Part shown: piece after piece, positions 16,596-64,000 of the stretch | How positions within the stretch are numbered: the first letter of the stretch is position 1 | Layout of the letters: each line of letters opens with the position of its first letter | From: Ylistrum balloti | Lineage: Eukaryota | Direction: 5' to 3' | Assembly: GCF_031769215.1 (NCBI RefSeq) | Contig: NW_026782006.1 | Span: 908,070-972,069, forward strand | Length of the DNA: 64,000 nt | The notes under the pieces: model-generated | Database searches by the model: none | What the model saw: only the letters and a program-made list of their open reading frames with translations | What the model was told of the DNA's origin: nothing | Made by a program: the position numbers and the translations under genes

Positions 16596-16810
16596 CACAG
16601 CAGCCTCATTATCTCAATCAGGTCACATCAGCCTCATTATCTCAATCAGGTCACAGTAGCCTCATTATCTCAATCAGGTCACATCAGCCTCATTATCTCA
16701 ATCAGGTCACATCAGCCTCATTATCTCAATCAGGTCACAGTAGCCTCATTATTTCAATCATGTCACAGTAGCCTCATTATCTTGATCAGGTCACAGTAGC
16801 CTCATTATCT
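16596..16810. repeat. 28-bp minisatellite, copy 3
   Basis: Same unit. Confidence 0.9.
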
Positions 16811-26800: not shown

Positions 26801-29800
26801 GAGGACTGCCTGATTTAAGACAGAGAGAGACAAAGAACATTTTGAGCCACAAAAGGACAAACAACAGATGTGCTATAATGATAGGCACTTATACATAACA
26901 ATATTCCAATGTAAAACCGACAACTAAAGTTTACAAAAATAGTGTGCTACATTTGCAATGTAAAATAATTACCCCTAAATAAATACTGTGATGATGAAGC
27001 TATACGATGTTAACATCTATGTCGCAGTGTAAGGCTCACTCAACAGACATAACTGTGATGATGAAGCTATACGATGTTAACATATTATCTATGTCGCAGT
27101 GTAAGGCTCACTCAACAGACATAACTGTGATGATGAAGCTATACGATGTTAACATCTATGTCGCAGTGTAAGGCTCACTCAACAGACATAACTGTGATGA
27201 TGAAGCTATACGATGTTAACATATGATCTATGTCGCAGTGTAAGGCTCACTCAACAGACATAACTGTGATGATGAAGCTATACGATGTTAACATATTATC
27301 TATGTCGCAGTGTAAGGCTCACTCAACAGACATAACTGTGATGATGAAGCTATACGATGTTAACATATTATCTATGTCGCAGTGTAAGGCTCACTCAACA
27401 GACATAACTGTGATGATGAAGCTATACGATGTTAACATATTATCTATGTCGCAGTGTAAGGCTCACTCAACAGACATAACTGTGATGATGAAGCTATACG
27501 ATGTTAACATATTATCTATGTCGCAGTGTAAGGCTCACTCAACAGACATAACTGTGATGATGAAGCTATACGATGTTAACATCTATGTCGCAGTGTAAGG
27601 CTCACTCAACAGACATAACTGTGATGATGAAGCTACTATACGATGTTAACATCTATGTCGCAGTGTAAGGCTCACTCAACAGACATAACTGTGATGATGA
27701 AGCTATACGATGTTAACATATTATCTATGTCGCAATGTAAGGCTCACTCAACAGACATAACTGTGATGATGAAGCTATACGATGTTAACATATTATCTAT
27801 GTCGCAGCGTAAGGCTCACTCAACAGACATAACTGTGATGAAGAAAATGTTACCTTGCCATTCTTTATCTTCTTCACTTGACCTTTATCATCAATGCTCT
27901 ACAAAATAAAATCAACACCCAATTTGATATTTATAGATGTAACACATTGAACATTTCTGCCGTAAGTAGTTGCCTTTTTGTATTATACATTCAGTGCCCT
28001 TACTTACTCACTTTATCACAAAGCTTTCAAAATGGTGTGTTATTGACAGTTCGAAAAAAATAAACTAAAAATGTCCTTTTTTATTACAAAATTACAAATC
28101 AAGTAAATGAGTTGATATTTATTTTTAATATAACTTTGATGTAAAAGTGATTAAAATCAATTTGAAAATTGAAAAAAGAGGTTGCTAACTCAATAATAAA
28201 TGTCTCAGTGCCATGGAGTTGCCGAATGCTTACTTAGTTTGTAAAACAGATATACATTTCAGCATTAAAAAATTGTTTAAAATACTACGTATCATATAAT
28301 GCTTGTTTACTTTGTAAAATAAATACAAATTACAACATGACTGCATAATACCTCTTTAATATGTTCACTAGAGTGATCTGTTTAATGGATTTGAGTGCAG
28401 GATTATGCTAACAGAAACGTAAGGTAATATGCAGGGGTTTATAATTCTATATATAAATAGTCATTAAAGATAGTGTAAATTTAATTACCCAGCAAATGTT
28501 TTCACACTTAATCCAAATGTCCCAAAATTTATGTTACCATGCCTATGTTGGTAACAATGTAGAGACATGCCTGATATTTGATATATGTGAACTTGCCTAA
28601 GCTTGGACATCTGGGAAACATTAGCCCTGCAAAATTATTGTTAAATATAGTTTTCCTCCATTTTGAACAGTTGTTAAATGTTCCACATTAATTAAGTGGT
28701 AAAAAGAAACAATAATATATTTAGTCAACATTTCTCAACCGAAAATCTAAATGTGATTTTCTTCTGACCTTAATCTATGTGGGCACTGAAATCTAACCAG
28801 GTGCACACCCTGACAGGTCTGGTGTGAATATAAAGTAACATGCACAGCTTGTACACAAGAATGACTTTTGACCTTCCACTTTGATTGATGACAACCAAAT
28901 TCTAGTCGGGTATAGATCTTGGTGGGGTTCATGAGGCATCTTGTACACAAACTTTTTACATCAGAAGTAGTCAAGGGTGAACTTTGACCTTTAACCATGA
29001 CCAAAGATCACTGAAAGCTCCAAGGTAAACCCTGGTGGGGTTAAGATATAGTTTGAACATAAAGTAAAATTGTAAGGGGTCATGAGATATATTGTGCACA
29101 GTTTACCATGGACAATTGGACAAATTGCTTACTTTATACACACCCTTCCCTTACTAAAGTGAGTGGTATAATTATTTCTGTCTGTGACTTACTTAAGTGA
29201 TTTGAGAATCAAACTATGAAATACATACCGCAATCATAATTTCATGGGTTGGGCTATGGACACTTCTTATGTCGAAGGGCATGTCCACTGCCACCTCTAC
29301 ACAGCATTCAATGTCCTTGGGGAAGGAAACAAAACCAGTTTTATCAACAGTCAGAAATATACACCAGGGATCCAAACGGGATGTTGGCACCAGTTTACCT
29401 CTATTTGTTCTTCAAAAGTTGGGAATATTTTTTCACTTCTTTTATCCCTGTTTTTGCTCTAAACTGAAGGAAATTTAAAAATTCTTTTGAAGAAATAGTG
29501 ATAACCTTTAACTATCAAATCAATGATGGTTGCTAGCCATTATTGTTTTTCTAATCAGTTTCACAACCAAAAGGCACAACTAGGTTCCAAGAGAAATCTA
29601 CATAATTCTGAAATTTGAGAAAGATCCAGTCCTACTCAAGAAATAACAAAGTTATATTGTCAAAATCAAAGATGGCCACCTGTCAGCCAATTAGATTTTT
29701 TATCTATCCCAAAATACAAAATCAAAATGCACAACTAAGGACCAAAGGGCACCTACATATGAAATTGGAGAAAGATCCATCAAGCACTGTATAGTGATAC

Positions 29801-41800: not shown

Positions 41801-44800
41801 TAAAAGTAAAATAAAGAGCAAAACTGATCCTGAGTCTATTTGCTTAAAGTAAAATAAAGAGTAAAGCTGATCCTGAATCTATTTGCTAAAAGTAAAATAA
41901 AGATTAAAGCTAAGTGATTCTGAATCTATTTGCTAAAGGTAGTACTATAGACAGAGGCATACTTACCCCTCCATAGACTTGTTGATGAGGGCCTTCACTG
42001 TCTTGTATACGTGATGATCAGGGCCTCTGTGATCTATCTGGCACCTAAGAGCCCTGTACTTGGACTCAGTTGATCCTCGCAGTGACCAGCCAGTGGCTTC
42101 ACTGACTGTCAGCATGTCCTTCATCACCTACCAAACATTTACAGAAAAACCTGGTTAATAGGAAATTATTTATTGCCAAAATTTTCTTCTCTTGGATTTG
42201 CAGAAACCCAAAGAGGGCTAAAAGAGTCTGTATCATTCACCTTCTTTTCAGGAACAGCCTACACATGACTGCTGTAAACCTCAAACAATGCAATAACCTT
42301 AAAGTGAGATGATGTCATACTTCATATGATTTAATCTGCTCAGCATCAGTGAAATAATTATACATACCTGACAAATATCTTGCTCGCAAGACAACCAGGA
42401 GTTGTTTACACTGCTGACAGACACCTTGGTATTGTGTGGAAGGGCAGAGTAATAATCATCAAGGACAGATTGCTTGTCCTCTGGTTGACCTCTCAGCTTC
42501 ATTAACAATGCTTCAGCCTTCTCAATCTAAAACAACCATACAAAGTATTCCCCATGGTAATAAGTTCAATGTAAGGACCACAACAAACACTCATGGTTTC
42601 TTACCTCAACTTGTTATTGACTCATTTCACTAAAAAACATTGATTGCCATATCAGCTTGAAGAAGGTAAAATCGACTGAGAGATTGACGTTAAGACTAGT
42701 GTAATCTGAAGAACTGCAGTAAGTTATCTAAATCACAATTTGTGAATACTTTCAGGATATAATACATCTTTTCATGGAACAGAGAAGTTACAGCATGTTC
42801 GCCTTTTTATGTTATTTTTCAGCTATATACCACAATACGTTATCATCTTGATGTTGTGCTTGGATAACATTGACCTGTTCTAGTTTGACAGAGCTCGGTG
42901 AGGTCAAGGTGTCCGACAGGTCTGAATATGCTTCCTTCCATATTCCCTCCACCAATTCACAGACAGGGGTGGATAACTCTGCTTTCTCCAGTCCAAATGA
43001 GACCATCACCTGTTCAGGAAAACTTCATGTGAACATTCACATTCTGTGATATGAATTTTACTTTGATAACAGAAGTCCTTACGCAAAGCTGATGTAAGTT
43101 AAAGTTTCAATTTTAAACATAGAATAGACATCCTCGATAATGCAAGAAATAAAATCACTACCACTTTCTGCACTCCTGGAGTATTTTACGGCAAAATTGA
43201 AAGCATACATGAGGTAATTTGATTGGTCTAGAGAAAGTTTCATGAGGAAAAAAACTGACAAATCACAAACTGATACGCTCCTTTGAATCTTACAAAGGAG
43301 CGACATCAAACTTCTAAGCCAGTACAACATACGTTAATGTGACCTTGAGATTCATTTTATGTACAGTATAAAATCTGTATTCTTGTCTTATCCACATGGT
43401 ACAGTACATGGGGAACCTTCGGTTTTTCAATAAGATGTTTCAGGGGTTCAGAGAGCAACAGTGATCCCTGGAGTACCAAGGAGGATGTAAAATAGAGATC
43501 CAAACACTTACTGGTTTAATTTTTTTTAGTTCAAATATTAGCTGACCTTTTGAAAATTCAAGGTGCCTACTCCCCTTGGTGGTGCATCATGGGAGACCTC
43601 CATTAGGTTTGGGTGGTCTGTCTCCTGTTTGTACAGGAAACTGTACATCTTTGTGGCTTCCTCCGAAGTCTCAACATAATAACACTCCATTTTTTCAGGT
43701 TTTCCTTCCTATGGAGAAAGTTATGAAGTTTAATGAACAATATCCTTTTTATATCAACATCATAAAAAAAAACTTGGCATACAGGACATTTATTTTATCA
43801 AAAACATTAACTTCAACTTTCCAATATGAAAAATATATACATAAAAATGTACCTGTATATTTTTAAGGTTTCCATGGTGTTTGGACACCCTGAATCTGTG
43901 AATTTGTCGAGGCAGAAGATCACATTCTTCTGTAACATGAACTTCAAGCACACAGAAAAATGTTCGTCCTGCACTCTTCACATATTTCTGCAATACAAAC
44001 CATACAAAATAATTAAAGAAAAAGATTGAGTTTTCCTACAGAATTTGAGTTTGGATCTTGCTTCATTGTACCAACAATTTTCATTGAGTCCATAAATTAT
44101 CATGCATGACCAACAAAATTATTTTTTTGCTATCTTTAATGGAAGAACGATACAGCAAGGAATTTGATAAATAACAGACTCCTATATCCAAGCTGATTCT
44201 ACAACCAGTGATAAAAGTCAACAGGGATCTCTTGTGCTAACATTCTCACCTGTAATACTGCATACTTTGCCACCTGATATTTGGTGTGGTTGAAAATTGG
44301 AGTGTGTTTTTCCTGTAGCGGCCATGCCTTCACTCCCGCTGGATAGAAGTATGACTTCCTCCTCTTACCAAGTATCTGGTACTTTGTAGCTATTACAAAT
44401 AATTTATCATTGGCTTAAGTGTACATATTTACTTCCACAAAAATTTGAGATCTGATCAATGCATTTATTAATACAATTATTACAGAACAAGGAAACTGTA
44501 TTTGTTTATGATTTCAATGAACAGTAATATGTATGCCTGGGCTTATTACCATGCTTATTTTCTGATAAATTAGGAAATAAATTGATCTTAATAGTGTATT
44601 TTTGTGTACTTGTTTAAGTATTCCATGCCATGGCTTCTATGCTGTATGAAATACATCTACAACAGTGAATCATTAGTTGTAGCAGACACCCCTAGGTAAA
44701 CAACATGTTTCATCAACCTCACCTGCAATTTTACCAGAGCCAAGTTTCTGAGACGTTGATTTGCCAACCATTAAGTAATCATCAGAACTGAGTAGTCTCC

Positions 44801-45463
44801 CTTTATCCACACAGTCATACAGGAAAGAGATGGATACAACAGGAATGCCGTACTTCTGGGCCATCTTACACTTGTAGCTAAAGTCTGTTTTGGCAGGATC
44901 ATTGCATACAACATGAGTACTCTAGAAACAATAAATAAATTTCATAATTCAGTTTAAATCTGAAACTTATTTTTACTCCTAATTAGCATATTTATGTTGA
45001 TAACATCTTGATGTCAATGAAGATATCATGAAAAAAGTTCATTTTAATTTGGACTACAAGTAAACCTTTATATGCTGAGATGCCAACCTGAACACATTAA
45101 TCTATGATGACATTCCGTTATCATTTACAAATCAGTCATCTATGTTTTACTAAAAAATAAGATGATATGATTTAATAAATCTAGTTTCTAAATAATCTAT
45201 CATGTACTTAGTCATGAATAATGAAAAAGCTGTTAATAAGTGATAAATCTACACAGACTATAAACAATTGAATACTGACAGAATTCAACAATTTAAGTAA
45301 GTTGTTCTTTTTCTGCTTGAAAGATCCCTACCTTCTTTGTGACAATGTAGGAAACAACACCATCATTTTCTGTTATCTTCTTTCGGATTTCCTGTTTCTT
45401 TTTGAAACTGACACTAGTTGTCAGATCAAGGACAACATGACAACCACGAAATACTGTTGTCAT
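20576..45463 (-). CDS. PARP4: PARP4-like gene (vault-type poly(ADP-ribose) polymerase: BRCT, PARP catalytic, VIT and vWA domains), CDS span, 27 exons modelled
   Basis: Chain of GT-AG exons with consistent reading phase; translated exons align motif by motif with human PARP4 recalled from memory (LLxHxS...NxVGIL, GIYFA, E-Y-V-VY, KYxFPLDxxAAVCGFEAxINxKHxVGExKEKE, VxIKITYxTEL, DxSxS MIDAS motif, RVFxFG, TSFxAVEKRD). Confidence 0.85.
21204..21305 (-). CDS. PARP4: PARP4 exon 26 RMKMDMKDYIIRLSKEFSIVTQLTSFIAVEKRDK
   Basis: Acceptor ctttcaccttgacag|, donor AAG|gtttga; human LIIKLSKENSLITQFTSFVAVEKRDENE. Confidence 0.8.
21508..21588 (-). CDS. PARP4: PARP4 exon 25 ILHQLAAKAIIRDWEDGLLSSDGLNQQ (alternative upstream acceptor at 21674 would add ...TNMITNTSQGVESPLSLTLFMLRQ but breaks the phase)
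   Basis: Phase-0 acceptor ctttatttatgttacgacag|, donor CAG|gtgaga; human IHKLAARALIRDYEDGIL. Confidence 0.6.
21759..21839 (-). CDS. PARP4: PARP4 exon 24 ATLTAEIGDQEISAVVTKSDRYVSKGK
   Basis: Acceptor tattacttcacag|, donor AAG|gtaaaa; only open frame; 81 bp, phase 0. Confidence 0.6.
22562..22729 (-). CDS. PARP4: PARP4 exon 23 VKSQIAKAGQPGLTSVAVSWQQEYGAPPPKQAPNQITAVFSGSRIVVYGFVQNCAS
   Basis: Acceptor gttctcggattttccaag|, donor AGC|gtaagt; human SVSVKWQQ...LLVYGF. Confidence 0.8.
23298..23397 (-). CDS. PARP4: PARP4 exon 22 SSMMNRHVLGALARVGAGVFEGFDSKAKSKWEEK
   Basis: Acceptor ctatttattacag|, donor AAG|gtaaaa; human NRHVLRILSQCGAGVFEYFNAKSKHSWRKQ. Confidence 0.85.
23900..24087 (-). CDS. PARP4: PARP4 exon 21 (vWA) SVDANMGNTDLYRPLHSFYLLKPESALRNIFLVSDGHINNQDITMDTVHKNSQHTRVFTFGV
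   Basis: Acceptor tttatcattacag|, donor AG|gtatgt; human MGNTDFWKTL...NILLVSDGH...HTRLFACGIG. Confidence 0.85.
24190..24602. repeat. 59-bp minisatellite (cctgtaatatcccttatcatcattaattaccgctaaataacaattatttctaataaatt), 7 copies, PARP4 intron 20
   Basis: Perfect tandem periodicity. Confidence 0.95.
24708..24781 (-). CDS. PARP4: PARP4 exon 20 AFRELFPSSQPKNKSSVSTAEVLIQ
   Basis: Acceptor tgtctgttgtcttcatcag|, donor CAG|gtcagt; phases 1 to 0 link exons 19 and 21. Confidence 0.7.
25000..25186 (-). CDS. PARP4: PARP4 exon 19 (vWA MIDAS) ACMLTFYPEFEACEDNESEVILMLDLSNSMTDKGLNEAKKILLLILHFLPKTWKFNVVIFGT
   Basis: Acceptor cctag| right after an in-frame TAG, donor G|gtaagt; DxSxS MIDAS motif; human ACMLVFQPDL...IICLDCSSSM. 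Confidence 0.85.
25187..26105. repeat. 33-35-bp minisatellite (caggcctaggataaa[a]cagtacaatgtcaacata), about 27 copies, starting inside the PARP4 exon-19 acceptor
   Basis: Each unit, read on the minus strand, is ttatcctag|gcctgtatgttgac, a copy of the exon-19 acceptor plus its first codons. Confidence 0.9.
26233..26370 (-). CDS. PARP4: PARP4 exon 18 PEQSTVLVVMEPNLNIGDGFQLLLELAEAHVPRMWVEQSEDDPTKQ
   Basis: Acceptor tatattgtag|, donor CAG|gtgaga; matches human SAAYLPRMWVEKHPE. Confidence 0.8.
26985..27845. repeat. 72-bp minisatellite (…ctatgtcgcagtgtaaggctcactcaacagacataactgtgatgatgaagctatacgatgttaacatattat), about 12 copies, PARP4 intron 17
   Basis: Tandem periodicity; array starts within 10 bp of the exon-17 donor. 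Confidence 0.95.
27854..27898 (-). CDS. PARP4: PARP4 exon 17 SIDDKGQVKKIKNGK (45-bp exon)
   Basis: Acceptor ttttattttgtag|, donor AAG|gtaaca; only open frame; phase 0 links exons 16 and 18. Confidence 0.5.
28880..29150. repeat. Two diverged copies of a ~110-bp element (…cctggtggggtt…gtaaggggtcatgag…), PARP4 intron 16
   Basis: Internal duplication seen by eye; probable interspersed-repeat fragment. Confidence 0.5.
29229..29315 (-). CDS. PARP4: PARP4 exon 16 DIECCVEVAVDMPFDIRSVHSPTHEIMIA (5-prime boundary uncertain; frame stays open upstream to ~29398)
   Basis: Acceptor ggttttgtttccttccccaag|, donor GCG|gtatgt; the upstream open frame (...DPWCIFLTVDKTGFVSFPK) also resembles human EKICIKEIGTKQSFSL, but there is no in-phase AG. 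Confidence 0.55.
29540..30000. repeat. About 155-bp unit x3, diverged tandem repeat, PARP4 intron 15
   Basis: Recurring ...caaaatcaaa[gg]g[gc]cacaacta[ag]gg[at]c[ct]aa[ag]g...tttgagaaagatcca... modules. Confidence 0.6.
30150..33335. repeat. 47-bp minisatellite (ggctgtgtatctgtgacttcctgtcaatgtttgtgatagtctgttga), about 67 copies (3.2 kb), PARP4 intron 15
   Basis: Tandem periodicity of 47 bp; a variant subfamily (…gtcacttcctgtcaatgtctgtgatagtatgaaga) fills the last ~1 kb; array ends ~30 bp from the exon-15 donor. Confidence 0.95.
33351..33506 (-). CDS. PARP4: PARP4 exon 15 (VIT) DVFTVSVGNVPANADVVIKITYVTELQVEDDLVSFRLPGTLAPWKKSSQDSN
   Basis: Acceptor ttttcattttcttaacag|, donor AAT|gtaaga; matches human DVFTVSVGNLPPKAKVLIKITYITEL. 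Confidence 0.85.
34358..34496. repeat. Tandem duplication, ~68 bp x2, PARP4 intron 14
   Basis: gattttatc[cg]t[tg]aagtcattaatgcc[ct]ttgtaactg[ag]tacataattt[ag]gattgaacac[tc]ttatagatt twice. Confidence 0.8.
34608..34832 (-). CDS. PARP4: PARP4 exon 14 (VIT) VKVLQHYHNNSEEMLEGKYVFPLDEMAAVCGFEAYINDKHVVGEVKEKETAHQEYKKAISEGHGAYLMDQDEESP
   Basis: Acceptor ccttaaccttgtcag|, donor CCG|gtatgt; near-identical motif run to human PARP4 VIT (AKYIFPLDDKAAVCGFEAFINGKHIVGEIKEKEEAQQEY...QGHGAYLM). Confidence 0.9.
35035..35760. repeat. 38-bp minisatellite (ctatgtcaaggtcacaattacctactgttacaattaca), about 19 copies, PARP4 intron 13
   Basis: Tandem periodicity; unit is itself two ~19-bp half-repeats (gt[ct]acaattac). 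Confidence 0.95.
36352..36488 (-). CDS. PARP4: PARP4 exon 13 NLADVKDVLDPMTKVKSGLVADGKDINPVELTSVNVFGKLKDLVAE
   Basis: Acceptor tccttgtttcag|, donor GAG|gtattt; phase 1 in matches exon 12. Confidence 0.8.
36866..37022 (-). CDS. PARP4: PARP4 exon 12 EDEYVVYSQNQQKMCYLVEFTIGSETPIPMEIVPTDNSVDTYTDSTTKMDKI
   Basis: Acceptor tatttatgttttag|, donor A|gtatgt; catalytic Glu motif E-Y-V-VY (human DDEFVVYK). Confidence 0.85.
37294..37477 (-). CDS. PARP4: PARP4 exon 11 STSVKYSQVSKSRGTRMMLVNKVALGKCMDLYTHDKTLEHAPDGYSSVHGVASTSNKASDFT
   Basis: Acceptor ttattgtattgtttttccag|, donor ACG|gtaaga; matches human PARP4 VALGKCMDLHEKDFSLTEAPPGYDSVHGVS. Confidence 0.85.
37529..38535. repeat. 31-bp minisatellite (gtgtgagataagtaattatctc[gca]t[tg]gttata), about 32 copies, PARP4 intron 10; each unit has an inverted repeat gagataa-gtaa-ttatctc with two opposed AGATAA (GATA-type) motifs
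   Basis: Tandem periodicity of 31 bp; the palindrome is seen directly. Confidence 0.95.
38795..38893 (-). CDS. PARP4: PARP4 exon 10 GLLMPKVVVDDFGGKRTDAGMLGAGIYFASAA
   Basis: Acceptor gggttcccaag|, donor AAG|gtaaga; GIYFA catalytic Tyr motif; phases 2 to 2 fit the neighbouring exons. Confidence 0.85.
39216..40062. repeat. 51-bp minisatellite (agtaaagtataaacactttggtgatgagcttacctagacaaaatcccaacc), about 17 copies, abutting the PARP4 exon-9 donor; every unit carries a copy of that donor
   Basis: Minus-strand reading of each unit is ACTGGTTGGGATTTTGTCTAG|gtaagctcatcacc; the true exon end is CAACTTTGTTGGGATTTTGTCTAG|gtaagctcatcacc. Confidence 0.95.
40063..40200 (-). CDS. PARP4: PARP4 exon 9 (PARP signature) NTRLNIINVFEVQRQMEEDNFTKELFGQNLLFHASKPNNFVGILSR
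   Basis: Acceptor ttttctattttctgtacattag|, donor CTAG|gtaagc; LLFHASKPNNFVGILSRG matches the PARP LLWHGSRTTNFAGILSQG block (H-A-S variant). Confidence 0.85.
40553..41940. repeat. 43-bp minisatellite (tttgctaaaagtaaaataaagag[tc]aaa[ag]ctgatcctgaatcta), about 32 copies, PARP4 intron 8
   Basis: Tandem periodicity; ends ~27 bp from the exon-8 donor. Confidence 0.95.
41967..42127 (-). CDS. PARP4: PARP4 exon 8 VMKDMLTVSEATGWSLRGSTESKYRALRCQIDHRGPDHHVYKTVKALINKSMEG
   Basis: Acceptor aaatgtttggtag|, donor GG|gtaagt; aligns to human AKYRALRCKIEHVEQNTEEF. Confidence 0.8.
42368..42526 (-). CDS. PARP4: PARP4 exon 7 IEKAEALLMKLRGQPEDKQSVLDDYYSALPHNTKVSVSSVNNSWLSCEQDICQ
   Basis: Acceptor tatggttgttttag|, donor CAG|gtatgt; PARP regulatory helical domain. 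Confidence 0.8.
42839..43009 (-). CDS. PARP4: PARP4 exon 6 VMVSFGLEKAELSTPVCELVEGIWKEAYSDLSDTLTSPSSVKLEQVNVIQAQHQDDN
   Basis: Acceptor tttcctgaacag|; donor AAC|gtattg just before an in-frame TAA; aligns to human SDLVEMIWAEA region. Confidence 0.65.
43547..43708 (-). CDS. PARP4: PARP4 exon 5 EGKPEKMECYYVETSEEATKMYSFLYKQETDHPNLMEVSHDAPPRGVGTLNFQK
   Basis: Acceptor aactttctccatag|; donor AAG|gtcagc chosen only to keep phase 0 (weak donor, 3-prime boundary uncertain). Confidence 0.55.
43843..43977 (-). CDS. PARP4: PARP4 exon 4 KYVKSAGRTFFCVLEVHVTEECDLLPRQIHRFRVSKHHGNLKNIQ
   Basis: Acceptor gtttgtattgcag|, donor CAG|gtacat; 135 bp, phase 0. Confidence 0.7.
44250..44338 (-). CDS. PARP4: PARP4 exon 3 GVKAWPLQEKHTPIFNHTKYQVAKYAVLQ
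   Basis: Acceptor tcatacttctatccag|, donor CAG|gtgaga; phase 1 in matches exon 2 phase 1 out. Confidence 0.6.
44723..44921 (-). CDS. PARP4: PARP4 exon 2 (BRCT) ...STHVVCNDPAKTDFSYKCKMAQKYGIPVVSISFLYDCVDKGRLLSSDDYLMVGKSTSQKLGSGKIA
   Basis: Acceptor ttgtttctag|AGT immediately after an in-frame TAG, donor CAG|gtgagg; BRCT C-terminal motif. Confidence 0.8.
45332..45463 (-). CDS. PARP4: PARP4 exon 1 (start codon) MTTVFRGCHVVLDLTTSVSFKKKQEIRKKITENDGVVSYIVTKK
   Basis: ATG at 45463-45461 with in-frame TAA 14 codons upstream; donor AAG|gtaggg; matches human PARP4 N-terminus (BRCT). Confidence 0.75.
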
Positions 45464-50358: not shown

Positions 50359-53300
50359 CTGAAGAAAAAGAAAACAATTACTTTAGCTGTGTATTTTACA
50401 AAGAATTTCCATAAGCAGTTAGAACATTTCTTTGTAGATGTCAATATACTAACAGGTTTTACAGATAAAGTATAATTTGTAAAAATGCAAATTGTTGAAT
50501 ATATTTAAAATCACTCCATAAATTGCACTTAACATCTACATCACTCTCCAGAATACTAATCACTATCAAAAAGAGAACTGAATAAAATGTAACATACTAA
50601 ACTTTCCTGCAATTAAAATGTCAGATTCCTGGATCACTACTTATATTTTCTTAAGAAGTTACAGAAAACCAATGACTAATACACAGACTACTCATCAGAT
50701 GAAAATTTTAATTAACTAAAATTTTTTTTAAAATCACATCTAAAAAGTCAACTACCCCTAACCAACTTATTCCTGAACAAGATCAGGCCAAAGAGCCACT
50801 TGAATTCTATTAAACTTCATGCTTGTTCACAAAATAGTTGATGATGCTACCACTTAACCCAGAAACTTACCTGTCCAATACTAACAGCTGATGCTGTCAC
50901 CACTTAACACAAAAACTTACCTGTCCAATACTAACAGCTGATGCTGTCACCACTTAATACAGAAACCTACCTGTTCACTACTAGCAGTTGATGATGCGAC
51001 CCCTGATGGTAAAGTGGACTGTGCTGATGGTAGATCCATGTTTAATTCCAATCTGTAACACAGGACACATACAATGTATCTATGATCAAAAGAGAATTGA
51101 TTCTAAAGTCTCATAAGTTAGCAAAATGAACACCAAAGGAATTACCACAAGTATAGAAGTGGTACATCACTTCATACAATCGAGTAGGACAGCTTGTGCA
51201 ATTGTATACACAACAAGTAAACTACAATAGATAATCCATTTCATATATACATATGTTCATTGTGTATCTCTAGTACATCAACAAACATCCTGTTTTCATA
51301 ATACATCATTGAAATCTGTTGATGGTCTTCCATAGACAAAGTTGACAGATAACTGAACAAAAATATGTGAAATTATAGTTCATCAAAAACAAATATTGAA
51401 GGTTTTACTGATTGACATACCCAGCCTCATCAGCAACTTCCTGCATAAGGCCTTCCACCTGTGTCTGTGGTGTGTTGAGGGTGGACGAAGCATTCATTGT
51501 ATCCTCCATTACCTGTGACTGCACATCTAGATTCTCAAACTGCTGTTCAAATCTATCCATCAACTGGGAGATCTGTAAAAAGGAGGAATCACATTCATTT
51601 CAAAATCTGATGGATAACACAACACTTGTCGGAAGATATCAAGTTATGTACAGTATCATAAAATGAAGAGGTGCCCTTCACACCCTGCTTAACTACAACT
51701 TGACACCAATAATTAACTGCTTTCTAACACGATCAATATGATATATAGTCTGGAGTAGTATTTACAGGCCCAAGGAACACTACATATGTACATACTAAAT
51801 TTGATAAAGATTAGATTTTTGAATTCTGAAAAGCATCATAGATGAACACTTCAAAATACATCAATATATCTCATCATTCTCCAGGTGAAGTTTCATTATA
51901 ACAAAAATAAATTTACCTTCTCCAGATTCATACTCTTCATTGCTGATTCCATTGACTTGACCACACCTGCCATGGAACCTGTGACCTGCCGATCATAGAC
52001 ATTTACATATTTTATTCATATCTAGAAATCTAATTTATCAATTCACCTTCATATATTTCTAACAAAATAGATCTGTATTCTTTAAAGAAGCAATATTTAC
52101 AGAAATCCCAGTGACATTTTATGAAATTCACTATATATAAAGTTGGTTGTTGGTCTGTAACAATACAGTTCAATATTGTAAAGGTACATGCTGTAGAAGT
52201 AATATTATTTTAGTGTTTTTCATGTTAAGGATATCGCACAAAAATGGCTTTGAGAATTTCCAATTTCTGTACCTTGTCAATAGAGCAATTATTGTAAAGG
52301 CAAAAATTCAACATAGAACTTATTTGTTTAAAATTTAAAATGAACTGTGCCGAAATAAATATGTTTAAGACTTAGTGAACATGTCAGAAAATAACATAAA
52401 TCTGAGGTAACCTTGACTGAAGTTACCAAGCAAACTCTATAAATGATGAATGAGTAAGATATTATGTACCTGTTTCATGGTGACAGCAGTTTGAACTCGA
52501 GCTGCTACAGCATCGATCCTTGCACTCATACGTCTGTAATTAAGGGCCTGGTTTTTCTGGCGGATTGAATTCTCTGCATGTATTCTGGCTCCCTCCAGGT
52601 TACCTTTCTGGATAGCCTGTAACAAGTAAATTCTTATTTTTTAGAAAGAATCTGAATACACAACCTGAGACTCTAATAACATCAAAATGAGATTTAATTT
52701 AGAAATTATGATCAAATTTCGTATAAATTCTACACTGATCTGACATAGACCAAGGCTGTAAGATTATCAGAGAGCACTAATATCAAAAGCAATATGAGGT
52801 TTCATTAAAGTGTCTGATTGTAACAATGACAGTGTTAAGAACTAGACAAACTATTTCTTGCCAAATGTTGACTTCCAGCAGTGTCCTACCCCTTTGGTGG
52901 TACATGACACACTGTCTGAAGGCATTTTCTAAATCATATTGTGTTCTAAATTTCATTAAGGTAACTGGAAGAAAAGAGAAACCATGTGCAAGATGGCACT
53001 AGTTGTACCAATATGATCTTCACCAGTGATCTAAATTAGCCTTCTTATTAATGCACATGAATATGGAGGCCCTGCTTGACTAGACTTGTATTTAAAACAA
53101 GTTGTACATCTTATTTCTTTACATATATGTACAGTTTTTAAAACAAAAAATTGAACTTAAAGATGTACATTTACAATTATAATTTCATTTTACCAGTATA
53201 ATGTTACAGAATATCATCATCACCTGTACATATGATTGACAATTCCAATATTTCTGTGTTACAATAAACTCACCTTTTTCAATTTTCTTTTTTCTGATCT

Positions 53301-55955: not shown

Positions 55956-58900
55956 GTTCGGTTCTGCAGTCGGCCGATTTATTTTGCATCAACTTAAAAA
56001 AAACTACCGGTACTAGCAGATTCGCAGGCCTGAAAATTCTAATGTCACTTGTTCCGACCAGAAGTTTGAATATTGTAGTGACAAACAGTTTTGGCACTTG
56101 CAGTTTTATTACAGTATTAATCGGTTGATATGTTTGTGCAATGTGAGATCGAAGAAATTCTTCAATGTTACCGTGTCTAAGAAAAAGGCTATTTATGGTC
56201 ATGCATTCACACGAATAACAGACTTAAATATGTCCAAGTTCGTTCTCACACACATCATGACTGCTGACATTTTTATACATTGTCAACGATTGTAATGGAA
56301 CATATATAGTATGTCGTTTTCTGTTCGATGACAACCAATCACTTTCAAACTCCCCAGGGTGCAAAGTTTTGTATGTCTGAACAGCTTTTTGTCATAATAA
56401 GAAATCTCAAATTGGTTTACAGATAAGATTCAGATTGCGTCTTGAAACTTTGTTGGCTCTCTGGCTACATCATGAAATAGGTTTTTTAAAGAGTTATTGC
56501 CCTTTCTCTTTTTCAGCATTAAGAATTTTTTTGGCACTATCTTCCTCAGTTTACAACTATTTTCTATTAAACTTTGTAGGCATTATAAGTATGATAAATG
56601 GGCATGTTTTCCTCTGTAATATTGAGAAACCTGTAATGAGATTTAATATTTTTTCAAGTTTTCGCTTCTTCTTTCAGCATTACAGTATTGTCCCGAATTA
56701 TTCTCTCAAATTTCAACTTTTCTCTGTAATACTTGGTATGCTTTACCATCAGAACATCAATATCCATTTTGATTTATTTCATGATATGGCCAATTTCCTA
56801 AATTTGTCCTTTACTCTTTCAATTTTCATCCCAACTAACAAATTTTCTTCCAAAAATGAGATAAAAGGCTTTTTCCCCAAAAACTCAGAGGGAAAAAACT
56901 TTCAATTTCATTGCTGTTGGGAAGTCATGAATGTTGTCTAGTATAGGGAGAAAATGACAAATGTATTGGTGTATTTCAGTAAATTTTGTGATAATTCAAA
57001 TACTGATTGTTAAGTTTTTTGATCACATGTTTACTGTGATAAAATTACCCATATCTAATATTTTGCTTATAATCAACATTTAAACACTGGACATAGTTTG
57101 GAACTGTGAGTTAATATGATGTTTGATTGTTACAATAGTCCACTTCAGATAGCCTGTATTGTATCAGGCATTGAATCATGTGCTTGTCTGATTACAACAA
57201 TTTAAAAAAAAAGATTTTCAATAAAGTATTTAAGGAAGCACACAAGTTAAACTATGTAAATCAGGGGTAGCCATTTAATGGCATTTTAGATGTAAATATA
57301 AAGAAAGTAACATTTAAACAAGTCATAGCTCACATCCTATCTGGATTCTGGTCTTATCAGTATTAAAAGTTTTTGTATCTTATTTCAGCTTTTGAACAAT
57401 TTTCTGAGACTGCACGTCAGTGGTCAGAGGAGCATGGATATGATATCATTGCTGGATACTGTCGATCTTCAGCAGAATGCAGTGAAATATTTAAAGTACT
57501 TGAAGCAGGGAAAAGAAAACCAGGAGAGGTAATCTCAGTCTTTATGATGAAAATACATCACTCCATCTTAAGTATGTTCATTTCTTATATATTTATTTAT
57601 TCATGCTGGTTAATGAGTCCTTGCTGACATAGACATTACAAAATCCTAATATAATGTTAAGTGAATCATACAGTAGACTTTCTTAGTAAAAGAATGATGG
57701 GAGAATTGTAGACCTAGCCTAAACTGAGCATGTCACAGCCAGAGGACTGGTTAAGGACAGAGTGGAAGAGGAAGGGGATCCTACACTGAGTAAATTTCTG
57801 TATGTTGGTAGTATATTGGGAGGCAGTCAGAATTACTTAATAAATAATCCTTATTGCTAACTTAACCCTGACCTCTGGGCTGGTGTTATCATGCCTGCTC
57901 TTTTTTGAAAAACCACAGAGGGATCTTTGTCACGAGAGTTGGATATTTTTTTATTCGGGCCATCATTCCGCGGACTTTGGGTTAGTGGTTAGATGTTAGT
58001 AAGGTGCTGGTAGGGTGATCTGCCCCTAAACATACTATTTACTTTAGTAATGTCTATACTTTCTGTAAATCCATATGCGATAAACATTCATAGAAAAAAA
58101 ATGTAGAAGTAATTCATACAGTAGACATGTACAGGTAAAAGTGAGTCATACAGTAGATATGTACAGGTAAAAGTGAGTCATACAGTAGATATGTACAGGT
58201 AAAGTAAGTCATACAGTAGATATGTACAGGTAAAAGTGAGTCATATCGTAGACATATACAGGTAAAGTTAGTCATACAGTAGACATGTACAGGTAAAAGT
58301 AATTCATACAGTAGACATGTACAGGTAAAGTTAGTCATACAGTAGACATGTACAGGTAAAAGTGAGTCATACAGTAGACATGTACAGGTAAGATTGAGTC
58401 ATACAGTAGACATGTACAGGTAAAAGTGAGTCATACAGTAGACATGTACAGGTAAAAGTGAGTCATACAGTAGACATGTACAGGTAAAAATGTGTCATAC
58501 AGTAGACATGTACAGGTAAAAGTGAGTCATATCATAGTCATATACAGGTAAAGTTAGTCATACAGTAGACATGTACAGGTAAAAGTGAGTCATACAGTAG
58601 ACATGTACAGGTAAGATTGAGTCATACAGTAGACATGTACAGGTTAAAGTGAGTCATACAGTAGACATGTACAGGTAAAAGTGAGTCATACAGTAGACAT
58701 GTACAGGTAAAAATGTGTCATACAGTAGACATGTACAGGTAAAAGTGAGTCATATCGTAGACATATACAGGTAAAGTTAGTCATACAGTAGACATGTACA
58801 GGTAAAAGTGAGTCATACAGTAGACATGTACAGGTAAAAGTGAGTCATACAGTAGACATGTACAGGTAAAAGTGAGTCATACAGTAGACATGTACAGGTA

Positions 58901-61900
58901 AAAGTGAGTCATACAGTAGACATGTACAGGTAAAAATGTGTCATACAGTAGACATGTACAGGTAAAAGTGAGTCATATCGTAGACATGTACAGGTAAAAG
59001 TGAGTCATACAGTAGACATGTACAGGTAAGATTGAGTCATACAGTAGACATATACAGGTAAAAGTGAGTCATACAGTAGACATGTACAGGTAAAAATGTG
59101 TCATACAGTAGACATGAACTGGTAAAAGTGAGTCATACAGTAGACATGTACAGGTAAAAGTGAGTCATACAGTAGACTTTCAACGAAAAGGAAAAAAAAA
59201 TCAGTTATGAGAAGAAGATTGTGATTAAATAATGATATAACTGTTTTATTACTATAGTCAAACTTCATTAATTCAAATGCATATTCATCCTAAGTTTGTC
59301 ATTTGACCAGTTGGCAGCTATTTTCGGTGTGTTGGAGGCTATATTACTAAGGATTGCAGATGACCTTGAGAAGTTTACCATGGTTGGCCAGAACATCGTT
59401 CAAAGACTGTTATCTTCACAAATGGCTACAGTATACTTTACCCTGCTGGTGACTAACAAGTCTGGTCACATCAAGGTTACCCTCAAGCTTCTGACAGCTA
59501 TGGTGATGTTGGGAGACCGGTCAGCCCGGATGGTTCTTGCTCAGTTTGATTTCAACAATCCAGTCCTACCACCATTATTGAATCGCAGAGACAAAAAGGT
59601 AGGATAATGCAAAAAAAATTCATGTGTAATCCTTTTGGTAAAGAATGTTGAGTGAAAAAAAATTATCATCTGTGTTCATTGGGCGAATTATTGAACTGTT
59701 GGTGATTGAAATAAAATTGATCAAATTTTTATATGATCATGAAAAATTTTTAGGGGTTGTATTATGTTCTGATGTTGTCCATCTGTCTATCCATCTGTCT
59801 GTCCATCTTTTTGTCCATCTGTTTGTCCATTTGTAAACTTGTGCTTTTCCTGAGATCTCCTCCCACAGTTTTTACACATAATGTTTCAAACGTTACAGAC
59901 AGACATGAAGTTGTGCCTCTCTGAACAGCATTTTGATTTGATGTTTTAAAAAGAGTTACTGCCCTTTTTTTCGATCATCTTTATTTTCTCTTGAGACCTC
60001 TTTATAAGGTGGCATTTTGACTTAACAAGTTTTTGAAAATCATTGCCCTTTATTCTCTCATTTTTCAGCTACTTTCTTTTAAGCTTGGTAGACTTAATTT
60101 TACTGACATGACATTGTGCTTTCTCAAGAGCATTTTGATTAAACTGTTAACTGATTGTCATATTTCAATGCATAATAGTATCTCTCTTTTACATGGGACA
60201 GGCTTATATTGTTCTGCCCTGCAGTATTCTTGTTTTGTATAGCTCTTTGGCCAAGTTATTGAAATACTCAGTCATGGTTGTACCCTGTTGTGTTCCAGGA
60301 TCCTAAAGATGTACGTACATGCTTGATTCACTTTATGATGTCTTTTCTGATCACTGGGAGTGATGATGTTGTCAAACAACTAATGGAACAAAGAGGTAGG
60401 ATTTAGATGTGTTTCAAAATTGGGAAATGAGAAAAATGTCATCATAACCATCAATAGAAATTTGTTAGCAATAATTATTTACATATTGATCAAAAGGATT
60501 TTGTCTAGTCCACATTTGTTAAGACCCTGGATCCTTTTACCATTTTTGAAGGAAGGTGTATTGGAAGAACGGCACGCTCCTATCTTCCTGTAATAAGTAA
60601 TTGTGTTGCGCTACATTTTCATTTTATACAAAGTTTTGATGGAAACTTAGTACCCATAAACCTGATATAGTTGTGTACCTGTGTGCTCCGTAGTGTAACA
60701 GGGTTTGCAGGTTTACTTTGATCTTATAAGCTTTGCTGATAAAAAGTATGTTTTCAACATAATTTTTGTCCATTTATACGTTCCACATGCTGCATGAACC
60801 TAGGGTAAAATTGTAATAAATGATAAATTTTCATATCATTTAGACAAGCTTCATGTTTGATTTCAGGTTTCCTTGGTAGCTTGATACCTGGGCTCCAATC
60901 TGATAGTGTGGGTAACATACAGATGGTAATGTCTACATTACTTCACAAGGTAAAGATAATGTAAACTGAAACTAAAGGATGTTGGATTTGATATCATCTG
61001 CTAGAGATATTTCCAAATTTATATATAAACATACCATTAAAATGTGGCTTATGCATTGGACTAATATGTATGTTGACATACCCATTCTGTGTGGCAGATA
61101 CATTGGACTAATATGTATGTTGACATTCTCATTCTGTGTGGCAGATACATTGGACTAATATGTATGTTGGCACACTCATTCTGTGTGGCAGATACAATGG
61201 ACTAATATGTATTTTGACATTCTCATTCTGTGTGGCAGATACATTGGACTAATATGTATGTTGACATACCCATTCTGTGTGGCAGATACATTGGACTAAT
61301 ATGTATTTTGACATTCTCATTCTGTGTGGTAGATACATTGTACTAACATGTATGTTGACATACTCATTCTGTGTTGTAGATACATTGGACTAATATGAAT
61401 GTTGACACACTCATTCTGTGTCTTAGATACATTGGACTAACATGTACGTTGACATACTCATTCTGTGTGGCAGATACATTGGACTAATATGTATGTTGAC
61501 ATACTCATTCTGTGTTTGAAATATGATTCTGTTCACATGACAGTATTTTTTTGTTATTTTTGACATACCTAAGTTGAGATTTTCTGAGATTGAAATGATA
61601 CACATAAACCCAATCTCACATACTAGTGATGTTAACAACAAGCTTTATATATATGTTCAGTGTTAAAAGAAGATTTAAGATATGCCAGGTTCCCCATATC
61701 ACATTGTATTAGCTTGTTTAGGTTTTGTCAATATACAGTCACTGTTCTTATATTCAGGTTGTCCAGAATCCTGCAGTTAGTAAGACATTAAAGGTGCGAC
61801 TGTTTACCGAGTCCAACATGAGACTTTTGGGTCAGATGTACCACTGGACTGGTCCTAGCACCTGGCAGAACCGGCCAGCAGAGGATCAGATAGAGGTTAG

Positions 61901-63507
61901 TAAAAATCTTCACCATTCTGAGAAACTTCGCATAAAAGTTTCATTATTATAAGATTAGTTTGTCTTTATGTGATCATATGAAATCCTTAAATTGCAGCGA
62001 TAGTTTAGAAATTTAAGTTTTAATGAAAATATATCATACCCTTTACATGGTATTAAATTATGATATATAAACATTTAATATACCAGTAGAATGATTCCCC
62101 AACATGAAGGCATCGGAGGTTGAAGTCTCAAATCTTAACATGACTTTCAGTCAATTTCAATTTCCAGGTAACAACAAAAATTTAAGGTGTAGTGTAGTTG
62201 GTATTTTTTATTTGAGATATAACAAAGCATTGCCATACAGTTAAAAGAGTGGATATTCTTGTATGGGGTGGGAGAAGTATATGAATAGATTTAAACATTT
62301 TCTCCACTAACTTGATGGTAATAACCTTTAGCAGTTATGTAATATGTATAGCTTTTTCCAGGCATAGCATTTTTTTGCGGTTCAATGAAATGTTGGCATT
62401 TATATTATCACACATCAATAAAGAGTGCATTCTGTTTACAAAGCTAAAGGAAACTTATCTCACAGGTGGGTGATGCCAATCAAACTGAGGACCAGAAAAC
62501 CGTGTCAGAGGCTACACACCAGCTCTTGGTAGAGTTGTGTTCCTCTCACAGATATGGAATCAACTTCTACGACAAATCACTGGGCACTACTGGACAGTAA
62601 GAAATATTCTGTAACTTCAGTATCAAGGAAATTAGAGCTGGACAGGTGTTACTCTGGAAACACTACCAATACCTTACTAATATAGGATTTGAACATCTAA
62701 AATTGAATTCTAACTCTGAGTGGGATTTGAGTATCAGACTAGTGTAGAAAGTAATATTTCATAAAGTACTTTCGCTTTTCTTATTGGTTTCACTGTGAAA
62801 GTGTTTGTGTAAGCAACATGAATAGAACACTAGGTTACATTGTATTACAAAGATTCTGTAAAATCCTCGAGGGGAAAATCAAGATGTTTGTTCACAGAAA
62901 AAATATTGGAAACTAAAGTCAAGGGCATGAAAAACAGTAGTAATACACTTCTAAACTTTGATTTTTTTTCCCCAGAAATCAAAACCACATTTTGACCAGT
63001 TTCTTGACATCACTGACCAAAGTAACAGAATCACCACTGATCCAGGAATTGGTTATAAAGACACTTCGGGCATGCCCAGACCAGCTGTGTCATTTCCTGC
63101 CCTCCATGTTAAACATCCTGTCACCACGACCTTCTCCTAAGTGGCGGGCTTCAATGGCGTTTCTCTGCAAGGTCATGATCAGACAGTTCTGTATCAAAGC
63201 TTAATCTAACACAAGATTAATCATTACCATAGTGATAGCTGAAATGGGAATGTATTTTTTATGAAATTCATTATCAGAAAAATGATTACAAAATTTAGGT
63301 TGATTTTTATTTCACTGCAGAAAAAGTCAATATAGCAGACAAGGTAATATTAAATATTTGCTTCTTCAGATTTTTGAAAAACAGTCAGACCTACCAGCTG
63401 TGTTCAAGATCAAGGAAAGAGTGAATGCCCATAAATTTGTGGATATGTTGATGGTGGACACCTTACCTCCACAGGAGATGTTATACACTGTACTGCAGGC
63501 TCTCAAG
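55799..63507 (+). CDS. URB1: URB1/NPA1 (nucleolar pre-ribosomal-associated protein 1) N-terminal part, exons 1-9; gene continues beyond the window
   Basis: Spliced exons collinear with the human URB1 N-terminus (…FKAQLKDP…, EDVYDVVEGYIKISVECVEIFQLL, IFQVFEAILLRTASDL...LSLMTAMV, HGINFYDASLGTFG, LVVNILKVCPDLL). Confidence 0.8.
56355..56950. mobile_element. Cluster of interspersed-repeat modules (…tctgaacagc[at]ttttg… / …aaagagtta[tc]tgccctttctctttttcagc…), URB1 intron 1
   Basis: Shares ~40-60-bp blocks with 59885-60245 (URB1 intron 3); probable MITE/SINE-like family. Confidence 0.45.
57389..57528 (+). CDS. URB1: URB1 exon 2 AFEQFSETARQWSEEHGYDIIAGYCRSSAECSEIFKVLEAGKRKPGE
   Basis: Acceptor tatcttatttcag|, donor GAG|gtaatc; phase 1 in. 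Confidence 0.8.
58109..59180. repeat. 32-bp minisatellite (acaggtaaaagtgagtcatacagtagacatgt), about 33 copies, URB1 intron 2
   Basis: Tandem periodicity; each unit contains CAGGTAAAAG and AAAAGTGAGT (strong 5-prime splice-site consensus). Confidence 0.95.
59311..59598 (+). CDS. URB1: URB1 exon 3 LAAIFGVLEAILLRIADDLEKFTMVGQNIVQRLLSSQMATVYFTLLVTNKSGHIKVTLKLLTAMVMLGDRSARMVLAQFDFNNPVLPPLLNRRDKK
   Basis: Acceptor tcatttgaccag|, donor AAG|gtagga; strongest URB1 match. Confidence 0.85.
59769..59830. repeat. 12-bp tandem repeat (gtccatctgtct) x5
   Basis: Direct tandem copies. Confidence 0.85.
59885..60245. mobile_element. Second copy cluster of the same interspersed repeat, URB1 intron 3
   Basis: Motifs tctgaacagcattttgat, aaaagagttactgccctttttt and attgccctttattctctcatttttcagc shared with 56355-56950. 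Confidence 0.45.
60299..60395 (+). CDS. URB1: URB1 exon 4 DPKDVRTCLIHFMMSFLITGSDDVVKQLMEQR
   Basis: Acceptor ccctgttgtgttccag|, donor G|gtagga. Confidence 0.8.
60867..60949 (+). CDS. URB1: URB1 exon 5 GFLGSLIPGLQSDSVGNIQMVMSTLLHK
   Basis: Acceptor tcatgtttgatttcag|, donor AAG|gtaaag. Confidence 0.75.
61052..61515. repeat. 47-bp minisatellite (cattggactaatatgtatgttgacata[cc]tcattctgtgtggcagata), about 10 copies, URB1 intron 5
   Basis: Tandem periodicity. Confidence 0.95.
61758..61895 (+). CDS. URB1: URB1 exon 6 VVQNPAVSKTLKVRLFTESNMRLLGQMYHWTGPSTWQNRPAEDQIE
   Basis: Acceptor ttcttatattcag|, donor GAG|gttagt. Confidence 0.8.
62466..62596 (+). CDS. URB1: URB1 exon 7 VGDANQTEDQKTVSEATHQLLVELCSSHRYGINFYDKSLGTTG
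   Basis: Acceptor aaacttatctcacag|, donor CA|gtaaga. Confidence 0.8.
62976..63171 (+). CDS. URB1: URB1 exon 8 QNQNHILTSFLTSLTKVTESPLIQELVIKTLRACPDQLCHFLPSMLNILSPRPSPKWRASMAFLCK
   Basis: Acceptor tttgattttttttccccag|, donor AAG|gtcatg (weak); phase 2 in matches exon 7. Confidence 0.75.
63370..63507 (+). CDS. URB1: URB1 exon 9 IFEKQSDLPAVFKIKERVNAHKFVDMLMVDTLPPQEMLYTVLQALK
   Basis: Acceptor tatttgcttcttcag|, donor AAG|gtcagg, which is also the first base of a 75-bp minisatellite. Confidence 0.75.
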
Positions 63508-64000
63508 GTCAGGGTCACATACATCACTCAGAGTCTTGGTCACTAAAATCATACAAGGTCAGGGTCACATACATCGCTCAGAGTCTTGGTCACTAAAATC
63601 ACTCAGGGTTAGGGTCACTCAAATCATTCAAGGTCAGGGTCACATACATCACTCAGAGTCTTGGTCACTAAAATCACTCAGGGTTAGGTCACTCACATCA
63701 TTCAGTGTCAGGGTCACATACATCACTCAGAGTTTGTGCCACTAAAATCACTCAGGGTTAGGGTCACTCACATCATTCAGTGTCGGGGTCACATACATCA
63801 CTCCGAGTTTGTGCCACTAAAATCACTCAGAGTTAGGGTCACTCACATCATTCAGTGTCAGGGTAACATACATCACTCAGAGTTTGTGCCACTAAAATCA
63901 CTCAGGGTTAGGGTCACTCACATCATTCAGTGTCGGGGTCACATCAATCTGAAGGTCAGTGTCACACATCACTCATTAGGTCACTGACACTCATCTTTTC
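63508..64000. repeat. 75-bp minisatellite built of three ~25-bp subrepeats (g[gt]tca[gc]ggtcac[at][tcn]a[ac]atca[ct]tca), 6.5+ copies, starting with the URB1 exon-9 donor GTCAGG; truncated at window end
   Basis: ORF period of 25 aa; units 2 onward recreate CAAG|GTCAGGGTCAC. Confidence 0.9.

Follow-up and report, generated by a model that had tools for sequence, protein, structure and literature searches.

How does a gene settle on a 5' splice site when the same intron goes on to offer exact copies of that site? The question is raised by a stretch of 64,000 nucleotides (nt) from the scallop Ylistrum balloti (contig NW_026782006.1, positions 908,070 to 972,069 of the forward strand; referred to below as the window), in which the ninth coding exon of the URB1 gene runs into a minisatellite that repeats its donor. 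Such arrays form a described class (PMC1557585, PMC3087553), so the novelty implied by the sequence-only reading, an earlier description of this DNA made by a model from the letters alone, was not sustained. Our literature search returned no report of donor-spanning minisatellites in scallops or molluscs. The feature adds the mollusc phylum to those in which this known, usually inert kind of arrangement is seen, and it is one to be expected in such a genome. The explanation that we favor, with a probability of roughly 75% and on the basis of sequence comparisons, is that of an old, lineage-specific minisatellite that would have been born at the junction as a neutral slippage product and would have no function of its own, the first donor being the one used.

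The host gene is URB1/Npa1, which encodes a ribosome-biogenesis factor. Nine coding exons can be traced on the plus strand from an ATG near 55799 (open reading frame and splice-site map), and exons 8 and 9 together (62976-63171 and 63370-63507) match the Pfam family PF11707 with 29.8 bits against a cut-off of 22.7. An exhaustive protein search aligned the window gene with XP_033740037.1 of Pecten maximus (annotated as "nucleolar pre-ribosomal-associated protein 1-like", a full-length match) at 86% identity over all 457 aa. A word-indexed protein search with exons 8 and 9 alone as the query gave no match, and with longer or profile queries it returned distant URB1s only (those of oyster, abalone and Lingula, with identities near 46%). 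The N-terminal Npa1 domain, the orthology to an annotated URB1 and the conserved exon structure all place the gene in this family. The sequence-only reading had named the gene, the number of the exon and the position of its donor correctly, as judged by Pfam, the P. maximus orthologue and the splice map.

Exon 8 (62976..63171, plus strand; donor AAG/GTCATG, where the slash here and below marks the end of the exon) is supported by the open reading frame and splice map and by the Npa1 match, and its length of 196 nt recurs in Pecten, Mactra, Mytilus, Haliotis and Lingula. Exon 9 (63370..63507, plus strand) comprises 138 nt or 46 codons, is in phase 0 at both ends and encodes IFEKQSDL...TVLQALK. 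As the ninth coding exon, it is flanked by ttgcttcttcag upstream and GTCAGGGTCACATACATC downstream, and its junction reads ...GCTCTCAAG/GTCAGGGTCACATACATC at 63507/63508. Its nucleotides are 87% identical to those of the P. maximus exon 9 (URB1 locus L005, 7606-7743). A 138-nt phase-0 exon that ends in ..LK and is followed by GT was found in six other species, with the exon ends and donors CTCAAG/GTCAGG in P. maximus (the same as in the window), CTAAAG/GTAAGT in Mactra antiquata, TTAAAG/GTAAGA in Mytilus edulis, CTCAAG/GTCAGT in Haliotis asinina, CTCAAG/GTCAGA in Haliotis rubra and GTCAAG/GTAAAT in Lingula anatina. The P. maximus protein crosses the junction as ...EMLYTVLQALK/HRHIVPRDTVLDF (QALK/HRHIV) and contains no residues from the repeat. 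Since exon length and phase are conserved in the six other species and the P. maximus protein passes directly from QALK to HRHIV, the boundary at 63507/63508 is secure as far as sequence alone allows.

Translation beyond the boundary in the frame of the exon yields VRVTYITQSLGH and then a stop, an in-frame TAA at 63544..63546 (plus strand). The earlier description had pointed to a mis-assigned boundary, with the repeat as coding sequence, as the case that could overturn it; this stop codon and the intron position conserved in six species both contradict that case. It is true that one frame of the distal units stays open for 99 codons (63688-63984) and that the resulting peptide matches the Pfam family PF23115 (zf-C2H2_STOP2_3rd) with 51 bits. 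However, this open frame is cut off from exon 9 by three stops in the same frame, and a unit of 75 bp, being divisible by three, easily stays open by chance. Taken singly, one unit reaches 20 bits, short of the cut-off of 27, and covers only profile positions 8-29 of 35. The two Cys and two His per unit of a C2H2 zinc-finger coding repeat are not present: there is one Cys per 25 residues, replaced by Gly at that place in the proximal units, and the 51 bits stem from three near-identical copies. We judge the match of 63688-63984 to this plant-type zinc finger to be a chance match inflated by repetition. With seven orthologues running directly from ..LK into conserved sequence, it seems next to inconceivable that the boundary has been misplaced and that the repeat, or its 99-codon frame, is coding.

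A tandem array that starts at the junction and reiterates the donor, as the sequence-only reading had proposed, is directly visible in the output of Tandem Repeats Finder (TRF) and in a layout of the sequence in steps of 25 bp. From 63508 on, TRF reports a period of 75 with a score of 665 (5.6 copies at 93% matches), in which shorter periods of 25 (17.4 copies at 71% matches) and 50 are nested, and the 25-bp sub-structure that had been described is real. The minisatellite occupies 63503..63944 (plus strand; its start was also placed at 63502 or 63508), and its 75-bp higher-order unit consists of the three 25-bp sub-repeats A (GTCAGGGTCACATACATCACTCAGA), B (GTCTTGGTCACTAAAATCACTCAGG) and C (GTTAGGGTCACTCAAATCATTCAAG). 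These are arranged as A-B, A-B-C, A-B-C (shorter by 1 nt) and three times A-B'-C, with B' starting GTTTGTGCCAC, and are followed by two to three degenerate 25-mers up to 64000. The three distal units (A-B'-C; 63707..63931, plus strand) are 95-99% identical to one another (unit table). No other copy of the array unit was found in the 64-kb window.

Some details of the earlier description had to be revised. The 75-bp period stands by the TRF result, but the array opens with an A-B unit of 50 bp, which places the nearest decoy donor at +50 and not at +75. Nor does the repeat start at the first base of the intron; homology begins about 5 nt within exon 9, where the TCAAG of the exon equals the TCAAG that ends a unit. 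The motif that had been given for the sub-repeat (ggtcacNNNatcaNtca) has 0 matches even when one mismatch is allowed; judged by eye, the spacing is GGTCAC-N4-ATCA-N-TCA, with four Ns instead of three. The array had also been said to run off the end of the window, which is not clearly the case: the 75-bp periodicity is well kept up to 63944 and stops there, 63945-64000 being made up of two to three degenerate 25-mers. The tail as a whole (63932..64000, plus strand; 25-bp layout and unit table) consists of 25-mer relics and carries the only AAG/GTCAGT of the window, which is of the terminal type. Up to base 64000, the window contains neither an acceptor nor exon 10 of URB1. In P. maximus, the single AAG/GTCAGT unit of intron 9 is the last one and lies 37 nt upstream of the acceptor, and because the tail carries this unit, exon 10 (HRHIVPRD... 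in Pecten) probably starts shortly past base 64000. The tail itself probably represents the 3' portion of intron 9.

How faithfully do the units copy the donor? To score donors, we derived a matrix from the 32 URB1 donors of P. maximus, which took the place of a human-based one. The authentic 5' splice site is AAG/GTCAGG (63505..63513, plus strand, cleavage at 63507/63508). The surrounding 15-mer CAAGGTCAGGGTCAC occurs in three exact copies only, at 63504 (the real donor), 63554 and 63629. The first decoy (AAG/GTCAGG, 63555..63563, plus strand, +50 nt) agrees with the real site at every base between -4 and +18, and the second (AAG/GTCAGG, 63630..63638, plus strand, +125 nt) does so from -5 to at least +44. 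The sequence shared by these three sites falls on the 66th percentile of the P. maximus donors, while the AAG/GTCAGT of the tail (63952-63960, GT at 63955, +447) reaches the 84th. Weaker sites are found within the units: the AGG/GTTAGG at the B-C joints lies on the 31st percentile, and each distal 75-bp unit also has an internal AGG/GTTAGG or AGA/GTTAGG. The four distal unit junctions (CAGT/GTCAGG or CAGT/GTCGGG) are very weak donors, on the 3rd percentile. Among the later units, the donor is re-created by the two proximal ones (+50, +125) and by the AAG/GTCAGT of the tail (63955), whereas the claim that all of them do so fails at the four distal junctions. Intron 9 opens with two true donor look-alikes, not with a full run of them.

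A C at donor position +3 is rare in vertebrates. It is common in scallop URB1, where 5 of the 32 P. maximus donors read GTCAG and where the donors of exons 8 (GTCAT) and 9 of the window share it. A search of Rfam with the 55-64 kb part of the window gave no RNA family. When folded, the RNA of the array was less structured than shuffled sequences (z = +2.2), and a masking of the decoys by RNA structure was rejected, the real donor being no more accessible than the decoys. We also considered recursive splicing. A recursive splice site (ratchet point) lies in a very long intron and joins a strong 3' splice site, with a pyrimidine tract and YAG, directly to a 5' site that is regenerated. The units end in ..ACTCAGA, ..CTCAGG or ..ATTCAAG and lack a pyrimidine tract, and the modest length of intron 9 (about 0.5 kb in the window, 301 nt in Pecten) likewise counts against such a site.

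The structural traits of junction-spanning minisatellites of the F7 IVS7 (intervening sequence 7) type, or of the amphioxus "mirages", are all found here, namely an intronic tandem array, a junction within the first unit and a reiterated donor. The closest parallel is the 37-bp variable number tandem repeat of F7 IVS7, in which the first monomer consists of 4 exon bp and 33 intron bp (Borensztajn et al. 2006, PMC1557585) and whose decoys were shown to be able to function but to be outcompeted by the site farthest upstream (PMC1557585). Both arrays have a first unit that spans the junction (4 exon bp there, about 5 here) and identical donor copies within a few hundred bases of the same intron. 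They differ in that all 4-8 decoys are identical in F7, whereas here there are two exact ones and one variant, the rest having decayed; in the mollusc host and the 75-bp higher-order unit of 25-mers; and in that the exclusive use of the first site was demonstrated experimentally there, whereas we infer it here. Amphioxus mirages (in Adh3, TnC, globins and PGBD5) are reported to leave splicing undisturbed (PMC3087553, PMC3902484). Like the scallop array, they are minisatellite-like duplications of exon-intron boundaries with concerted evolution of units in a repeat-rich, highly polymorphic marine invertebrate, but they often take in longer parts of the exon than the approximately 5 bases seen here, also arise at acceptors and belong to another taxon. 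Taken alone, the scallop array matters little, as a further natural tandem of identical 5' splice sites of the kind dissected in human F7. What it adds is the arrangement in a mollusc and its persistence across genera.

These precedents bear on whether the decoys are used. If they were, splicing from +50 or +125 would add 50 or 125 nt to the transcript and, as from any downstream decoy, would include the in-frame TAA at 63544-63546; the products would be unproductive isoforms targeted by nonsense-mediated decay, arising either as noise or as a form of dosage control. The two proximal decoys are well suited to this, since their match with the real donor extends along 15 nt or more and their score is the same, and exact decoys persist in P. 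maximus too. There is also a precedent: in IFI6 (6-16) intron 2 and CBS intron 13, as summarized in PMC1557585, a minisatellite that spans the junction and reiterates the donor, as here, has its two nearest decoys used beside the authentic site. If the scallop decoys were used in this way, the products would carry a premature stop. In F7 IVS7, LMNB2 and PDGF, on the other hand, the authentic site alone is used (PMC1557585), and the amphioxus decoys are silent as well (PMC3087553, PMC3902484). The P. maximus gene model takes the first donor only, and the G at -1 has been lost in the distal units of the window, as would be expected if the decoys bring no benefit. Use of the decoys to any such effect thus appears unlikely, although it deserves to be kept in mind.

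The array has a clear counterpart in P. maximus. Intron 9 of this species (LR736842.1; L005 7744-8044) is 301 nt long, begins at the donor CTCAAG/GTCAGGGTCA and is followed by exon 10 from 8045; it consists of related 25-27-nt units from the donor through to the acceptor, and TRF detects a 27-bp unit (ACATCACTATCAAGGTCAGGGTCACAC) at 7804-7963. Its first 100 nt or so are degenerate units, and three exact CAAG/GTCAGGG decoys follow at +102, +129 and +156. The end of the P. maximus exon 9 matches the end of a unit at 7 of 8 bases (CTCTCAAG vs CTATCAAG), and a sequence corresponding to the B' motif of the window (TTTGTGCCAC) lies toward the 3' end of the Pecten intron. In the protein model of P. 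maximus, splicing proceeds from the first donor. The two arrays agree in gene, intron and donor, in their homologous 25-27-nt units, in the presence of exact decoys and in the terminal AAG/GTCAGT. In Pecten, however, the 27-bp unit lacks a 75-bp higher order, the intron measures just 301 nt and the exact decoys begin only at +102, so that unit length, copy number and order all differ between the two species.

Within each scallop species, the closest-matching units are neighbors, with 95-100% identity, which is typical of array turnover. At intron 9 of Mactra, Mytilus, both Haliotis species and Lingula, no array was found. Because the P. maximus intron is built of orthologous units behind the same donor, the array is, by this comparison, older than the split of the two scallops, and each lineage appears to have later amplified different units. 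Copy numbers, taken here from one haplotype, can be distorted by assembly error in arrays of this kind. That the array itself exists is beyond doubt, since the independent assembly of a related species contains an orthologous one.

Does its retention in two scallop genera indicate a function? An alignment of the window with P. maximus by the Basic Local Alignment Search Tool (BLAST) gave matches at the exons, extending up to about 80 nt into their flanks, at the promoter region and at intron 9, and none elsewhere, the interiors of the other introns giving no alignment. The consensus units of the two species are about 90% alike as judged by eye, although a comparison of consensus with consensus always makes repeats look better than one of unit with unit. 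A selected intronic element could be imagined that aids the recognition of exon 9 through sites for the U1 small nuclear ribonucleoprotein or for heterogeneous nuclear ribonucleoproteins (hnRNPs), or through nuclear-receptor half-sites. The junction motif TCAAGGTCA, which we take to be an extended nuclear-receptor half-site of the ERR/SF-1/FTZ-F1 type as a candidate reading only, is present in 2 copies in the window array (63503-63511, 63628-63636) and in 7 copies in the region of the 301-nt Pecten intron (L005 7739-8011). TAGGGT (UAGGGU in the RNA), presumably similar to an hnRNP A1-type site and again no more than a candidate, occurs in four C sub-repeats of the window array.

The degree of divergence between the two scallops argues against such a role. 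At the four-fold sites of exons 8 and 9, 31 of 44 (70%) are identical between the window and P. maximus, and at this distance ancestral sequence is expected to be still recognizable; intron 8 also aligns, if weakly (68% identity, z = 2.1). The z of 33.7 for the alignment of intron 9 is inflated, since the repeat aligns with itself in many registers. We therefore rejected conservation as a sign of function. Since neutral divergence is moderate, an array that is common by descent needs no selection, and shared ancestry would be enough to explain the similarity. The differences in unit length, copy number and order point in the same direction. Donors starting with GTC are ordinary in scallop URB1 (5/32) and need no special help, and in Mactra, Mytilus, Haliotis and Lingula the splicing of this exon manages without an array. 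On balance, it seems very unlikely to us that the array is a selected functional element.

A further possibility is that the repeat did not arise from a local duplication of the junction, but came to lie beside the exon as a copy of a satellite dispersed in the genome or of a tandem repeat carried by a transposon. Bivalve genomes contain many element-associated tandem repeats, and our search of this particular genome covered 64 kb. However, the unit has no copy elsewhere in the window or in five URB1 loci, those of P. maximus (L005, outside intron 9), H. rubra (L001), Saccostrea (L002), Lingula (L003) and H. asinina (L008), and a 22-nt core of the unit had no match in metagenome contigs, which is weak evidence. 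Moreover, in both scallops the repeat includes the last bases of the exon and sits at the same intron. Within the reach of these searches, we consider an origin from elsewhere to be very improbable.

The junction-born, neutral minisatellite that we favor would have arisen as follows. A founding unit would have taken in the last few bases of exon 9 together with the donor, and later units would for this reason carry donor copies. In a genome that produces minisatellites everywhere, the array has most likely arisen, and keeps changing, through replication slippage or unequal exchange. A recent amplification would have created the 75-bp higher-order unit in the window species, and another one the 27-bp unit in P. 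maximus. Splicing would most likely proceed from the first, exon-adjacent donor, and the decoys would either be silent or yield an occasional transcript that contains a premature stop and is broken down. Several points weigh against this explanation. The first-donor junction of P. maximus is that of a RefSeq gene model. The use of the two nearest decoys in IFI6 and CBS (PMC1557585) concerns precisely those positions at which the scallop array has exact copies. Finally, intron 9 is the sole stretch of intron aligned by BLAST beyond the exon flanks of up to about 80 nt, which could hint at constraint, even if repetition inflates the alignment.

Other junction-spanning arrays occur in URB1 genes. 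In P. maximus, four further donors are spanned by arrays: at L005 18633-18726 (47 bp x 2, with 26 exon nt), at 22501-22577 (38 bp x 2, with 8 exon nt), at 24802-27760 after coding exon 23 (40 bp x 74, comprising the last 27 exon nt and GTATGTACAGGGC) and at 27952-28075 (63 bp x 2, with 12 exon nt). A 46-bp array (L005 23138-23949) ends 3 nt before an acceptor. In H. asinina (L008 32947-33248, 36029-36972, 25845-26197 and 20633-20891), we could observe two donor-spanning arrays, one array that starts exactly at the donor and one that spans an acceptor, and in H. rubra (L001 11253-11798) a 33-bp array begins 3 nt past the donor of the exon equivalent to exon 8. The URB1 genes of Mactra and Mytilus contain no junction-spanning arrays.

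Measured against random placement within introns, the 4 donor-spanning arrays of P. maximus URB1 compare with 0.9-1.0 expected (P = 0.014). When four mollusc URB1 genes were pooled, 6 donor-spanning arrays stood against 2.6 expected (P = 0.04, post hoc) and 1 acceptor-spanning array against 2.6 expected. This excess is suggestive, a post hoc hint at most, and is not established. Altogether, 4-5 of the 32 P. maximus URB1 donors are reiterated. It is conceivable, if doubtful, that donor-spanning minisatellites are a regular feature of scallop genes and of some gastropod genes, much like the mirages, and that the array of intron 9 is a retained member of this group and not noise. If so, duplication would have to be coupled to splice donors in some way, or else the rule by which the first donor is selected would have to be so strong that dozens of perfect decoys are passed over. 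Alongside the 74-copy case in P. maximus, the array of intron 9 suggests scallops as a natural test of how the spliceosome chooses the first of many equal donors.

The array must also be seen against the minisatellite load of the window, where 29 arrays make up 40% of the sequence, and 25% of the URB1 part. All other arrays keep a distance of at least 94 nt from exon edges. By a rough estimate, the chance that an array edge falls within 5 nt of one of 17 exon edges is about 0.1-0.2. The repeat itself is certainly beyond chance; its position against the donor is unremarkable in this genome. Intron 2 of URB1 harbors a 32-bp minisatellite of 33.8 copies (58103-59177). On the sense strand of this intron, 28 donor look-alikes score at least as high as the donor of exon 9 under an approximate matrix, 27 of them within the minisatellite, where they are of the types AAA/GTGAGT, CAG/GTAAAG and CAG/GTAAGA. 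Decoy donors within intronic repeats are commonplace in the URB1 gene of the window. For the annotation of repeat-rich bivalve genomes, the array of intron 9 serves as a warning that exact donor copies, sometimes together with exon sequence, can follow the true donor.

In the heavily loaded part of the window (1-41941), a succession of arrays with a 27-mer, a 51/92-mer and a 28-mer occurs three times at 2537-16810, a pattern that points to a block of some 5.4 kb having been triplicated in tandem. Lingula anatina URB1 contains three consecutive exons twice, about 2.8 kb apart (L003 5890-6890 and 8765-9695). One residue of the second copy is ambiguous, and the doubling reflects either a segmental duplication within the gene or an error of the assembly. 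Upstream of URB1, CHMP1/Snf7-like exons lie head-to-head with the gene on the minus strand of the window (51408-51599 and 52440-52640), their own Pfam match (Ist1) being weak, and P. maximus, Saccostrea and Lingula share this divergent arrangement of the two genes. Further upstream, at 44676-44921 on the minus strand, there is an exon that encodes a BRCT domain.

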